Shown here piece by piece: positions 5,587 through 22,555 of a stretch of 64,000 bases of DNA. Position 1 is the first letter of the stretch. Every line of letters starts with the position of its first letter. The notes beneath the pieces are model-generated. The model was not told the DNA's origin, did not search any database, and saw nothing but the letters and a program-made list of their open reading frames with translations. The position numbers and the translations under genes are program-made. Origin of the DNA: Escherichia coli (GTDB taxonomy: Bacteria; Pseudomonadota; Gammaproteobacteria; Enterobacterales; Enterobacteriaceae); the NCBI RefSeq assembly GCF_002854065.1, contig NZ_CP024147.1; one strand, 5' to 3'.

Positions 5587-8373
5587 ATGGTTCAGATCCC
5601 CCAAAATCCACTTATCCTTGTAGATGGTTCATCTTATCTTTATCGCGCATATCACGCGTTTCCTCCGCTGACTAACAGCGCAGGCGAGCCGACCGGTGCG
5701 ATGTATGGTGTCCTCAACATGCTGCGCAGTCTGATCATGCAATATAAACCGACGCATGCAGCGGTGGTCTTTGACGCCAAGGGAAAAACCTTTCGTGATG
5801 AACTGTTTGAACATTACAAATCACATCGCCCGCCAATGCCGGACGATCTGCGTGCACAAATCGAACCCTTGCACGCGATGGTTAAAGCGATGGGACTGCC
5901 GCTGCTGGCGGTTTCTGGCGTAGAAGCGGACGACGTTATCGGTACTCTGGCGCGCGAAGCCGAAAAAGCCGGGCGTCCGGTGCTGATCAGCACTGGCGAT
6001 AAAGATATGGCGCAGCTGGTGACGCCAAATATTACGCTTATCAATACCATGACGAATACCATCCTCGGACCGGAAGAGGTGGTGAATAAGTACGGCGTGC
6101 CGCCAGAACTGATCATCGATTTCCTGGCGCTGATGGGTGACTCCTCTGATAACATTCCTGGCGTACCGGGCGTCGGTGAAAAAACCGCGCAGGCATTGCT
6201 GCAAGGTCTTGGCGGGCTGGATACGCTGTATGCCGAGCCAGAAAAAATTGCTGGGTTGAGCTTCCGTGGCGCGAAAACAATGGCAGCGAAGCTCGAGCAA
6301 AACAAAGAAGTTGCTTATCTCTCATACCAGCTGGCGACGATTAAAACCGACGTTGAACTGGAGCTGACCTGTGAACAACTGGAAGTGCAGCAACCGGCAG
6401 CGGAAGAGTTGTTGGGGCTGTTCAAAAAGTATGAGTTCAAACGCTGGACTGCTGATGTCGAAGCGGGCAAATGGTTACAGGCCAAAGGGGCAAAACCCGC
6501 CGCGAAGCCACAGGAAACCAGTGTTGCAGACGAAGCACCAGAAGTGACGGCAACGGTGATTTCTTATGACAACTACGTCACCATCCTTGATGAAGAAACA
6601 CTGAAAGCGTGGATTGCGAAGCTGGAAAAAGCGCCGGTATTTGCATTTGATACCGAAACCGACAGCCTTGATAACATCTCTGCTAACCTGGTCGGGCTTT
6701 CTTTTGCTATCGAGCCAGGCGTAGCGGCATATATTCCGGTTGCTCATGATTATCTTGATGCGCCCGATCAAATCTCTCGCGAGCGTGCACTCGAGTTGCT
6801 AAAACCGCTGCTGGAAGATGAAAAGGCGCTGAAGGTCGGGCAAAACCTGAAATACGATCGCGGTATTCTGGCGAATTACGGCATTGAGCTGCGTGGGATT
6901 GCGTTTGATACCATGCTGGAGTCCTACATTCTCAATAGCGTTGCTGGCCGTCACGATATGGACAGCCTCGCAGAACGTTGGTTGAAGCACAAAACCATCA
7001 CTTTTGAAGAGATTGCGGGTAAAGGCAAAAATCAACTGACCTTTAACCAGATTGCCCTCGAAGAGGCCGGACGTTACGCCGCCGAAGATGCAGATGTCAC
7101 CTTGCAGTTGCATCTGAAAATGTGGCCGGATCTGCAAAAACACAAAGGGCCGTTGAACGTCTTCGAGAATATCGAAATGCCGCTGGTGCCGGTGCTTTCA
7201 CGCATTGAACGTAACGGTGTGAAGATCGATCCGAAAGTGCTGCACAATCATTCTGAAGAGCTTACCTTGCGTCTGGCTGAGCTGGAAAAGAAAGCGCATG
7301 AAATTGCAGGTGAGGAATTTAACCTTTCTTCCACCAAGCAGTTACAAACCATTCTGTTTGAAAAACAGGGCATTAAACCGCTGAAGAAAACGCCGGGTGG
7401 CGCGCCGTCAACGTCGGAAGAGGTACTGGAAGAACTGGCGCTGGACTATCCGTTGCCAAAAGTGATTCTGGAGTATCGTGGTCTGGCGAAGCTGAAATCG
7501 ACCTACACCGACAAGCTGCCGCTGATGATCAACCCGAAAACCGGGCGTGTGCATACCTCTTATCACCAGGCAGTAACTGCAACGGGACGTTTATCGTCAA
7601 CCGATCCTAACCTGCAAAACATTCCGGTACGTAACGAAGAAGGTCGCCGTATCCGCCAGGCGTTTATTGCGCCAGAGGATTATGTGATTGTCTCAGCGGA
7701 CTACTCGCAGATTGAACTGCGCATTATGGCGCATCTCTCGCGTGACAAAGGCTTGCTGACCGCATTCGCGGAAGGAAAAGATATCCACCGGGCAACGGCG
7801 GCAGAAGTGTTTGGTTTGCCACTGGAAACCGTCACCAGCGAGCAACGCCGTAGCGCGAAAGCGATCAACTTTGGTCTGATTTATGGCATGAGTGCTTTCG
7901 GTCTGGCGCGGCAATTGAACATTCCACGTAAAGAAGCGCAGAAGTACATGGACCTTTACTTCGAACGCTACCCTGGCGTGCTGGAGTATATGGAACGCAC
8001 CCGTGCTCAGGCGAAAGAGCAGGGCTACGTTGAAACGCTGGACGGACGCCGTCTGTATCTGCCGGATATCAAATCCAGCAATGGTGCTCGTCGTGCAGCG
8101 GCTGAACGTGCAGCCATTAACGCGCCAATGCAGGGAACCGCCGCCGACATTATCAAACGGGCGATGATTGCCGTTGATGCGTGGTTACAGGCTGAGCAAC
8201 CGCGTGTACGTATGATCATGCAGGTACACGATGAACTGGTATTTGAAGTCCATAAAGATGATGTCGATGCCGTCGCGAAGCAGATTCATCAACTGATGGA
8301 AAACTGTACCCGTCTGGATGTGCCGTTGCTGGTGGAAGTGGGGAGTGGCGAAAACTGGGATCAGGCGCACTAA
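5587..8373 (+). CDS. polA: DNA polymerase I
   Basis: 928-aa ORF with 5'-3' exonuclease, 3'-5' exonuclease and polymerase motifs; DnaA-box-like ttatccaca in upstream region. Confidence 0.98.
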
Positions 8374-16654: not shown

Positions 16655-16725
16655 CTGCACCATGATGTGAATGTTGCACCAATATAGTGCTTCAATGGAA
16701 ACATTAAGCACCATATTGGTGCAAT
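16655..16725. promoter_or_regulatory. NtrC enhancer sites upstream of glnA
   Basis: Repeated TGCACC-N-GGTGCA-like dyads (tgcaccatgatg, tgcaccaatatagtgc, agcaccatattggtgca). Confidence 0.75.
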
Positions 16726-18748: not shown

Positions 18749-18914
18749 GCCTGTCGTGAGCGCACACCAATGCGAGTATCTCCCTTATAAGTCTGTGGTT
18801 ACGTCAATAGAGAGCTTTGTCACAATTATCTGCAAAGTCATACGCCGTTAATTGCTTTCTTTTTTGGCGTAAGCGTAAGATGCTTCATCTGGTTTAAACC
18901 AAAAGGATTAAACA

Positions 18915-19550
18915 ATGGCGGAGAATCAATCCACCGTAGAAAATGCAAAAGAGAAACTGGATCGGTGGTTGAAAGATGGCATCACCACGCCGGGTGGAAA
19001 ACTCCCTTCAGAAAGAGAGCTGGGAGAACTGCTGGGCATTAAACGTATGACGCTGCGCCAGGCGTTGTTGAACCTCGAGGCAGAATCCAAAATCTTCCGT
19101 AAGGATCGTAAGGGGTGGTTCGTGACCCAGCCGCGATTTAATTACAGTCCGGAGCTGTCGGCGAGCTTTCAGCGGGCCGCAATTGAGCAAGGGCGAGAGC
19201 CTTCCTGGGGGTTTACCGAGAAAAACCGTACCAGCGATATTCCCGAGACGCTCGCGCCACTGATTGCAGTGACGCCATCAACTGAACTCTATCGCATCAC
19301 CGGCTGGGGGGCGCTGGAAGGACATAAAGTTTTCTATCACGAAACATATATTAATCCTGAAGTTGCTCCGGGCTTTATTGAACAACTTGAAAACCACTCA
19401 TTTTCTGCAGTCTGGGAAAAGTGCTACCAAAAAGAGACGGTAGTAAAAAAATTGATTTTCAAACCCGTCAGAATGCCGGGCGATATCAGCAAGTATCTTG
19501 GCGGTTCTGCGGGTATGCCAGCGATATTAATTGAAAAGCATCGCGCCGAC
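18915..19550 (+). pseudogene. yihL: yihL (GntR/UTRA-type regulator), 3'-truncated by IS1
   Basis: ORF reads through into IS1 left end (last 8 codons GDAANLLI are IS1-encoded). Confidence 0.8.
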
Positions 19551-19605
19551 GGTGATGCTGCCAACTTACTGATTTAGTGTATGATGGTGTCTTTGAGGTG
19601 CTCCA

Positions 19606-19881
19606 GTGGCTTCTGTTTCTATCAGCTGTCCCTCCTGTTCAGCTACTGACGGGGTGGTGCGTAACGGCAAAAGCACTGCCGGACATCAGCGCTATCTCTG
19701 CTCTCACTGCCGTAAAACATGGCAACTGCAGTTCACTTACACCGCTTCTCAACCCGGTACGCACCAGAAAATCATTGATATGGCCATGAATGGCGTTGGA
19801 TGCCGGGCAACCGCCCGCATTATGGGCGTTGGCCTCAACACGATTTTCCGCCATTTAAAAAACTCAGGCCGCAGTCGGTAA
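19606..19881 (+). CDS. insA: IS1 InsA
   Basis: Identical 91-aa product. Confidence 0.95.
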
Positions 19882-20303
19882 CCTCGCGCATACAGCCGGG
19901 CAGTGACGTCATCGTCTGCGCGGAAATGGACGAACAGTGGGGATACGTCGGGGCTAAATCGCGCCAGCGCTGGCTGTTTTACGCGTATGACAGGCTCCGG
20001 AAGACGGTTGTTGCGCACGTATTCGGTGAACGCACTATGGCGACGCTGGGGCGTCTTATGAGCCTGCTGTCACCCTTTGACGTGGTGATATGGATGACGG
20101 ATGGCTGGCCGCTGTATGAATCCCGCCTGAAGGGAAAGCTGCACGTAATCAGCAAGCGATATACGCAGCGAATTGAGCGGCATAACCTGAATCTGAGGCA
20201 GCACCTGGCACGGCTGGGACGGAAGTCGCTGTCGTTCTCAAAATCGGTGGAGCTGCATGACAAAGTCATCGGGCATTATCTGAACATAAAACACTATCAA
20301 TAA
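19800..20303 (+). CDS. insB: IS1 InsB
   Basis: Identical 167-aa product. Confidence 0.93.
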
Positions 20304-20318
20304 GTTGGAGTCATTACC

Positions 20319-21306
20319 GCCGGGGTATTGGGGCATCCTCTTTGTCTGGGCGCTATTTGGCGTTACTTGCGACATGATGAACTGGCCGGTCTTACTCAAG
20401 TCGGTAAGTCGATTGGGCAATAGCGAACAACAAGGTCGGTTGTTTGGCTTCTTCGAAACAGGGCGTGGCATTGTCGATACCGTGGTGGCATTTTCTGCGT
20501 TGGCAGTATTTACCTGGTTTGGCAGTGGCTTATTGGGTTTTAAAGCAGGCATCTGGTTCTATTCCCTTATTGTGATTGCCGTAGGCATTATTATTTTCTT
20601 TGTCCTGAATGACAAAGAAGAGGCACCGTCCGTTGAGGTGAAAAAAGAAGACGGAGCATCGCAAAACACCAGTATGACCTCGGTGCTGAAAGACAAAACT
20701 ATCTGGCTTATCGCTTTCAACGTCTTCTTCGTTTACGCGGTTTACTGTGGCCTGACATTCTTCATTCCATTCCTGAAAAACATCTATCTATTGCCCGTTG
20801 CGCTGGTGGGGGCTTACGGCATCATTAACCAATACTGTCTGAAAATGATTGGTGGACCGATTGGTGGCATGATTTCAGATAAGATCCTGAAATCGCCGAG
20901 TAAATATCTATGCTACACCTTTATCATCAGTACCGCTGCGCTCGTACTGTTGATTATGCTGCCGCACGAAAGTATGCCGGTCTATTTAGGGATGGCATGT
21001 ACGCTGGGCTTTGGCGCGATAGTCTTTACACAGCGAGCCGTATTTTTTGCACCTATCGGCGAAGCAAAAATTGCTGAAAATAAAACAGGCGCGGTGATGG
21101 CGTTGGGTAGCTTTATTGGTTACGCCCCGGCGATGTTCTGCTTTAGTCTGTATGGCTACATTCTGGATTTAAATCCGGGGATTATTGGCTACAAAATCGT
21201 GTTTGGCATTATGGCCTGCTTCGCATTCTGTGGTGCGGTGGTTTCCGTAATGCTGGTTAAGCGTATTAGCCAACGTAAGAAAGAGATGCTGGCGGCTGAA
21301 GCTTAA
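20319..21306 (+). pseudogene. yihN: MFS transporter YihN, 5'-truncated (C-terminal ~330 codons only)
   Basis: Multi-TM ORF begins directly at IS1 right end with no native start; matches C-terminal part of yihN. Confidence 0.75.
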
Positions 21307-21427
21307 TTAATGGCCGGATGTGCTTAATCCGGCCAAAAAAAATCCGCTGAATCCCCAGCGGATTTTTCGAAGTTTCAATTTCAGGATACTTCTTGCTCGG
21401 CAACTACCAGTTCAACATTCTCTTCAC

Positions 21428-21790
21428 TTAACAACTGGCAGAAAGAATTGGGAGGCGGGGCATCAGTAAAAAAAGCCCTGACATTCCGTGCATTGCCAAC
21501 GCTACCGCGCCGTGAAAAACATCGCCTGCTCCAGTCGTATCAACCACATTGACAGAAAATGCATCCTGTTGACACAAATGATCATCTTTAATCCACAATG
21601 AATCTTCAGAACCCAGCGTGACATACACTTTACCCGCAGTTTGTGTCGTTGCCTGGTACAAACCTTCTTCAGGTGACTGCAGGCCAGTCATGCGTTTCCG
21701 CCCTGGCGTTGAGAACACGGCGTGATCAGTAAGCGCGACAAGTGGATAAATATCCTGCGGTGTCATATCGTCGCTGGTTATCGAAACTCG
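21428..21790 (-). pseudogene. Remnant of pfkB-family sugar kinase (yihV-like sulfofructose kinase)
   Basis: Reverse-strand ORF contains VDTTGAGDVFHGA pfkB signature but lacks N-terminal half and has a non-native C-terminus. Confidence 0.55.
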
Positions 21791-21955
21791 TTGGCAATTT
21801 ACACCTGAATCTTAACCATTCATCTATTGCGAAAAAGCCAGTGAAATTACTCTGCTTTTTCGCAATCAGCATCACAAGATTACCCTTATTGCCACATAGC
21901 CAAACCCATCCTTTCCCGCTACAGTTAATTTCTTGTGGCGCGAAAGGAGGCAAAA

Positions 21956-22555
21956 ATGCTCTATATCTTTGATTTAGGTAATGTGATTGTCGATATCGAC
22001 TTTAACCGTGTGCTGGGAGCCTGGAGCGATTTAACGCGTATTCCGCTGGCTACGCTTAAGAAGAGTTTTCATATGGGGGAGGCGTTTCATCAGCATGAGC
22101 GCGGGGAAATTAGCGACGAAGCGTTCGCAGAGGCGCTGTGTCATGAGATGGCTCTACCGCTAAGCTACGAGCAGTTCTCTCACGGCTGGCAGGCGGTGTT
22201 TGTTGCGCTGCGCCCGGAAGTGATCGCCATCATGCATAAACTGCGTGAGCAGGGGCATCGCGTGGTGGTGCTTTCCAATACCAACCGCCTGCATACCACC
22301 TTCTGGCCGGAAGAATACCCGGAAATTCGTGATGCTGCTGACCATATCTATCTGTCGCAAGATCTGGGGATGCGCAAACCTGAAGCACGAATTTACCAGC
22401 ATGTTTTGCAGGCAGAAGGTTTTTCACCCAGCGATACGGTCTTTTTCGACGATAACGCCGATAATATAGAAGGAGCTAATCATCTAGGCATTACCAGTAT
22501 TCTGGTGAAAGATAAAACCACCATCCCGGACTATTTCGCGAAGGTGTTATGCTAA
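21956..22555 (+). CDS. yihX: HAD-family sugar phosphatase YihX
   Basis: N-terminus [15 protein letters not shown] with HAD motif I. Confidence 0.93.

Follow-up and report, generated by a model that had tools for sequence, protein, structure and literature searches.

An inverted repeat upstream of yihX in Escherichia coli is most likely an ordinary end-of-operon stem-loop of the short yih cassette

The perfect inverted repeat at positions 21826-21866 of the window (the entire stretch of 64,000 nucleotides analysed here) is native sequence located just 3′ of the aldose-1-epimerase gene, which is the last gene of the short yih cassette. Most likely, this palindrome is an ordinary end-of-operon RNA stem-loop. 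The window carries the short cassette after three deletions, one of them at an IS1, without any inversion. The operon that formerly read into the palindrome is gone, and the palindrome is here an orphan. The coordinates of the features are summarized in Table 1.

Table 1. Features of the decayed short yih cassette and of the palindrome region in the window.
Feature	Position	Strand	Basis and remarks
yihL block	18800-19550		blastn; L003 3731-4481
IS1	19551-20318		
Block from yihN to 3′ end of DeoR gene	20319-21499		blastn; L003 5924-7140
DeoR-family regulator (yihW-type), C-terminal fragment	21381-21503	-	RefSeq annotation of identical locus L002 and blastn against L003
Kinase interior block	21494-21773		blastn; L003 7982-8267
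PfkB sugar kinase (yihV-type), internal fragment	21494-21771	-	Annotation and blastn against L003
Deletion junction, kinase interior to epimerase 3′ end	21770-21772	.	About 7.3 kb lost (L003 8268-15536)
Block of last 44 nt of epimerase gene, spacer and yihX	21772-22100		blastn; L003 15537-15865
Aldose-1-epimerase, last 44 nt (TAA at 21813-21815)	21772-21815	+	blastn against L003; rest of gene deleted
Left arm ATTGCGAAAAAGC	21826-21838	+	Repeat search; same in L003 and L002
Spacer/loop CAGTGAAATTACTCT, 15 nt, possible weak 4-bp inner helix	21839-21853	+	Repeat search, folding
Right arm GCTTTTTCGCAAT	21854-21866	+	Repeat search
C-rich, G-poor rut-like tract	21838-21936	+	Composition scan; from right arm into shared yihX upstream region
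yihX upstream region, sequence common with K-12	21889-21955	+	K-12 alignment; all DNA to its left is short-cassette-specific
yihX (glucose-1-phosphatase), intact	21956-22555	+	

A repeat search at 100% complementarity returned two 13-nt arms with 15 nt between them, in the order ATTGCGAAAAAGC-CAGTGAAATTACTCT-GCTTTTTCGCAAT. The first-pass annotation had described a perfect palindrome with 12-bp arms and a 17-nt spacing; the palindrome is indeed perfect, but its arms were counted one base pair short (13 + 15 + 13). Its placement about 90 bp upstream of yihX agrees with the 89 nt between the end of the right arm and the annotated ATG at 21956, and the deletion scar next to which it was placed corresponds to the junction at about 21770-21772. 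The palindrome is far beyond chance: the window has three perfect inverted repeats with a loop of 3-30 nt and arms of 13 nt or longer, against a mean of 0.05 per 64 kb when it was simulated 100 times under a first-order Markov model. The remaining two observed repeats have 4-nt loops and flanks of A/T-tracts, and resemble canonical terminators. The exact 12-mer of the arm has two sites in the window, which are the two arms themselves, and no others even if one mismatch is allowed.

Two other repeats in the window were noted. A perfect inverted repeat at 35303-35341 has 12-nt arms (AATAAGTCCTGC / GCAGGACTTATT) and a 15-nt loop, is not followed by a T-run and begins 5 nt past the stop of a 277-aa ORF that ends at 35298. 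Its build is the same as that of the palindrome, and hence the architecture of the latter is not unusual. The repeat at 21338-21367 (AAAAATCCGCTG / CAGCGGATTTTT, 6-nt loop), placed where yihN and the DeoR remnant converge, looks like a bidirectional intrinsic terminator.

The short yih cassette (yihTUVW type), in reversed orientation, is present in Nissle 1917 and many other strains (Kaznadzey et al. 2025, PMC12608037), where neither the palindrome nor the epimerase-yihX spacer is mentioned. It is a sugar-utilisation cassette, an alternative to the ompL-yihW sulfoquinovose cassette of K-12 at the same chromosomal site, and is carried by about a quarter of E. coli strains. In E. coli O104:H4 C227-11 (L003), the genes yihL, yihM and yihN are followed by a DeoR regulator and a sugar kinase on the minus strand, and then, on the plus strand, by a yihU-like reductase, an aldolase, a Zn-dependent dehydrogenase (ADH), two MFS transporters, an aldose 1-epimerase and yihX. 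The epimerase gene ends a series of six genes that are closely spaced and point the same way, and the palindrome, at 15591-15631 of L003, begins 10 nt past its TAA. This placement between the epimerase stop and yihX was found in all intact short cassettes compared, that is, L003 and L029-L034, all identical. Segment 21780-21888 was found in 1384 of the 5426 complete E. coli genomes, at one place per genome, and always under or next to a gene annotated as aldose 1-epimerase. The palindrome thus belongs to the right-hand end of the published short cassette, of which the window holds a decayed copy.

Comparison of the window with L003 by blastn gave four colinear blocks (Table 1). The region 18915-21773 is decayed, with IS1 between a truncated yihL and a 5′-truncated yihN, and with yihM lost. 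An 841-bp deletion joins the DeoR and kinase remnants. The junction between kinase and epimerase is shared by 38 complete E. coli genomes, O145:H28 strains among them. The first-pass annotation had spoken of a deletion/inversion scar. However, the kinase and regulator fragments lie on the minus strand because this is their native orientation in the short cassette (PMC12608037). The inversion idea was also rejected by alignment: the reverse-complemented yihU-yihV spacer of K-12 is not homologous, and nothing homologous was found to the left of 21889.

The palindrome is absent from the csqR(yihW)-yihX spacer of K-12 MG1655 (L001 9456-9553), as judged by alignment and by a pattern search of L001. 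Identity with the K-12 spacer begins only at 21889, and the K-12 counterpart has no unusual structure (fold z = -0.9). The possibility that the palindrome is present identically in K-12 as part of a known terminator can therefore be dismissed. Nor is it a relic of a lost yihW regulator region, as had been proposed, because its source is the epimerase-yihX spacer of the short cassette rather than a K-12-like yihW-yihX spacer; the DeoR/yihW-type remnant lies at the opposite end of the cassette (about 21381-21503, minus strand).

The K-12-like region upstream of yihX contains, at 21909-21948, a second inverted repeat (TCCTTTCCCGCTACA / TGTGGCGCGAAAGGA), which also occurs in L001 (9507-9546), L006, L009 and L011. 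In this repeat, CCTTTCC pairs with the downstream Shine-Dalgarno sequence of yihX (AAGGAGG). E. coli, Citrobacter and Phytobacter share an unchanged left arm and adjoining CCCGCTACAGTTA. The helix is retained by RNAalifold, with an unfavourable covariation term (+0.89). Because most of its pairs never vary, this repeat could equally be explained as a conserved promoter element.

The 61-nt segment around the palindrome was identical in 1379 of the 1384 E. coli genomes. This invariance is no proof of constraint, because E. coli strains hardly differ anywhere in the cassette. When strains of phylogroups B2 and A are compared (L029-L034 versus L030), the epimerase gene differs at 6-7 of 888 nt (0.7-0.8%), and the adjacent core gene yihX at 23-33 of 600 nt (4-5%). 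The switch from low to high divergence falls near the cassette boundary, and the low diversity of the cassette is consistent with a recent spread by recombination. The covariation search added a single homologue from outside E. coli, Escherichia sp. MOD1-EC7003, which is about 5% divergent. Its arms are intact and identical to the invariant E. coli arms, with a single change in the loop; with 1.3 arm changes expected, this is not significant.

At the orthologous epimerase loci of 24 other genomes no homologous palindrome was found, only unrelated hairpins. The hairpin that usually comes after the epimerase gene in other genera is unrelated in sequence and often a canonical terminator. These unrelated hairpins after orthologous epimerase genes favour a generic end-of-operon structure over a conserved operator. 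In Citrobacter with the same epimerase-yihX adjacency, the spacer spans just 14-45 nt up to the shared sequence and holds no palindrome. The arms were not found in viral contigs, and a metagenome scan returned one E. coli contig and two unrelated contigs. The latter (L035 2180-2208 and L036 3640-3675) have the same 13-nt arms with loops of 3 nt and 10 nt in contexts dissimilar to the E. coli locus, and were judged to be coincidental hairpins. A repeated extragenic palindrome or MITE-like element was rejected, because each of the 1384 genomes carries the palindrome at a single place and viral contigs lack it. Like REP/BIME elements, the palindrome is extragenic, lies past a gene end and could stabilise upstream mRNA. 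Unlike them, it is single-copy per genome, has A/T-rich arms and is unrelated to REP in sequence.

The 41-nt hairpin folds at -18.1 kcal/mol (z = -5.9), and its 85-nt context on the plus strand at -20.1 (z = -4.6); the minus strand folds about as well. The stem consists of 5 G-C and 8 A-U pairs, closed by a loop of 15 nt. A U-tract after the stem is absent on both strands, where CAGCATCAC comes next on the plus strand and AGATGAATG on the minus strand. An intrinsic terminator was rejected, since the palindrome has neither a G+C-rich stem with a loop of 3-8 nt nor a U-rich tract of about 7-8 nt. An Rfam covariance scan (E up to 10) gave only chance-level hits, the best overlap having E = 4.1 and 18 bits versus a gathering score of 48.

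Sequence composition downstream of the stem is strongly skewed. Windows of 78 nt starting at 21845-21856 contain 25-27 C versus 7 G, the most skewed one (from 21845) having 27 C and 7 G, and just 0.02% of the 78-nt plus-strand windows in the 64 kb are equally skewed. Untranslated RNA past the last ORF would contain a stable stem-loop without a U-tract, with rut-like sequence directly downstream, as at Rho-type ends. Among the three roles proposed in the first-pass annotation (regulator operator, yihW relic or terminator), terminator came closest: in intact relatives a stable RNA hairpin does lie 10 nt past the stop of the last gene, but it lacks the U-tract of an intrinsic terminator.

In E. 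coli, Term-seq has shown that Rho-dependent transcripts end just past stable stem-loops without U-rich tails (PMC6061677). In such transcripts, rut (C>G) sequence lies directly downstream of the stem-loop, which forms a barrier to trimming by PNPase and RNase II after diffuse termination farther downstream (PMC6061677). The palindrome resembles these ends in being a stable stem-loop soon after the last stop, without a U-rich tail and followed by C>G rut-like sequence. It differs from them in its loop of 15 nt, as compared to short loops, and in its A/U-rich stem (5 G-C of 13). The protective stem-loops of that study resemble intrinsic-terminator hairpins, and the long loop of the palindrome counts against a role of this kind. 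Furthermore, the C-rich tract from 21889 onwards is also present upstream of yihX in K-12 and may serve yihX rather than the cassette, which likewise counts against this parallel.

Position, fold and composition together suggest how the stem-loop might work. In intact cassettes, the palindrome would be transcribed at the end of the operon running from the yihU-like gene to the epimerase gene, and would fold into a 13-bp stem-loop. From the right arm onwards, in the C-rich, G-poor tract, Rho would stop transcription, and 3′-to-5′ exonucleases would then trim the transcript back to the stem-loop. The stem-loop would thereby become the stable 3′ end of the operon mRNA and would help to shield yihX from read-through. 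We consider this full combination, in which a 3′ stem-loop protects the transcript, Rho terminates in the C-rich tract and yihX is insulated, to have an even chance of being correct. In the window nothing on the plus strand appears to read into the palindrome any more, which would leave it a relic with no task.

Alternatively, the palindrome may have no function at all. It could be a neutral by-product of the origin of the cassette's right end, such as a junction artefact or the decayed remains of a bidirectional terminator (A5-stem-T5), and would then persist only because the cassette is young and has hardly diverged within E. coli. We regard this as rather unlikely, although several results point in its direction. 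With the cassette end almost invariant across phylogroups (6-7 of 888 nt in the epimerase gene), conservation of the palindrome carries no signal; the short Citrobacter spacers without palindrome imply that the segment is specific to the Escherichia lineage; and the sequence between the A5 and U5/T5 runs pairs at just -0.7 kcal/mol, no better than shuffles, as in a decayed terminator core. A neutral relic does not readily account, however, for an excess of about 60-fold over simulated repeats (3 versus 0.05 per window), for a place 10 nt past the stop and before an extreme C>G tract that fits a known functional pattern, or for the perfect arms kept in MOD1-EC7003, even though only 1.3 arm changes were expected there. 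That the palindrome is a weak or leaky intrinsic terminator, acting by partial Rho-independent termination at a small inner hairpin with the U5 of the right arm or at the full stem, is very improbable. The position past the last gene is right, and A5...T5 runs flanking a hairpin are typical of bidirectional intrinsic terminators such as the A5-stem-T5 at 21338-21367, which share the gene-end placement. Unlike in these terminators, the runs of the palindrome lie inside the stem, the core between them is unpaired and no T-run follows. If the full 13-bp stem forms, the U5 run sits within it and CAGCAUCAC comes next, and the inner A5-U5 hairpin is too weak to differ from shuffles. The consensus scan found no terminator-like site on either strand.

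At the DNA level, the two 13-bp arms could be half-sites of an operator for the cassette's DeoR-type YihW or for a global regulator, controlling yihX or the cassette end. The perfect dyad about 110 bp upstream of the yihX ATG would suit such a role, and the window holds another long-spacer repeat, at 16674-16724, upstream of glnA. We nevertheless consider an operator improbable. No half-site with up to 3 mismatches was found in the divergent kinase/yihU promoter region (L003 8747-8918) or at 7811-7849, half-site matches in the island were not enriched (14 versus 8.7 expected), and no k-mers of at least 8 nt were shared with the two regulatory spacers of the cassette (yihU/V and yihV/W). Hence, the operator proposed in the first-pass annotation gains no support from the cassette's regulatory regions. 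The 28-bp centre-to-centre spacing would put the half-sites on different helix faces, which is awkward for a dimer. Moreover, yihX of K-12 and Citrobacter lacks the site yet has the same proximal upstream sequence, and the consensus scan detected no promoter-like site nearby. In the glnA repeat itself, perfect 12-nt arms (TTGCACCAATAT / ATATTGGTGCAA) flank a 27-nt spacer. They contain TGCACCA/TGGTGCA, similar to NtrC binding sites, which are to be expected upstream of glnA.

If prone to form a hairpin or cruciform, the palindrome could also act, at the cassette's right edge, as a site of recombination or breakage that promotes exchange of long and short cassettes. Cassette-specific DNA gives way to shared DNA 22 bp rightward of the palindrome, where the low diversity of the cassette also ends, and in one genome, E. 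coli O157:H7 TR01, a csqR of the long-cassette type is fused exactly at the palindrome's border between loop end and right arm. In this strain (L004 1490-1548, NZ_CP033605.1), csqR loses its stop and runs into CTGCTTTTTCGCAAT, which comprises the last loop bases and the right arm. Yet this hybrid was unique among the 5426 genomes and may reflect a single recombination event or an error of assembly; no counterpart was seen at the left end, the palindrome is single-copy, and the distribution is accounted for by exchange through ordinary homologous recombination in core genes on either side (PMC12608037). A recombination site is therefore a highly improbable explanation, and there is equally little likelihood that the palindrome is also a preferred right-hand breakpoint for long/short yih swaps, whose tendency to form a hairpin or cruciform would make the locus the evolutionarily labile module noted in the literature.

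The preferred reading, an end-of-operon stem-loop, concerns an ordinary structure: the cassette polymorphism at the yih locus has already been published, and the palindrome is an unannotated member of a well-known kind of element. The short cassette has been reported to be transcriptionally unresponsive to sulfoquinovose in Nissle 1917 (PMC12608037), which counts against this reading. For studies of why the short cassette differs in behaviour from the K-12 cassette, the hairpin and the C-rich tract would offer a testable 3′ boundary, and insulation of yihX could be examined in the same way. Beyond this, its importance is small and lies in a correct annotation of the window as a decayed short cassette rather than a rearranged K-12-type locus.
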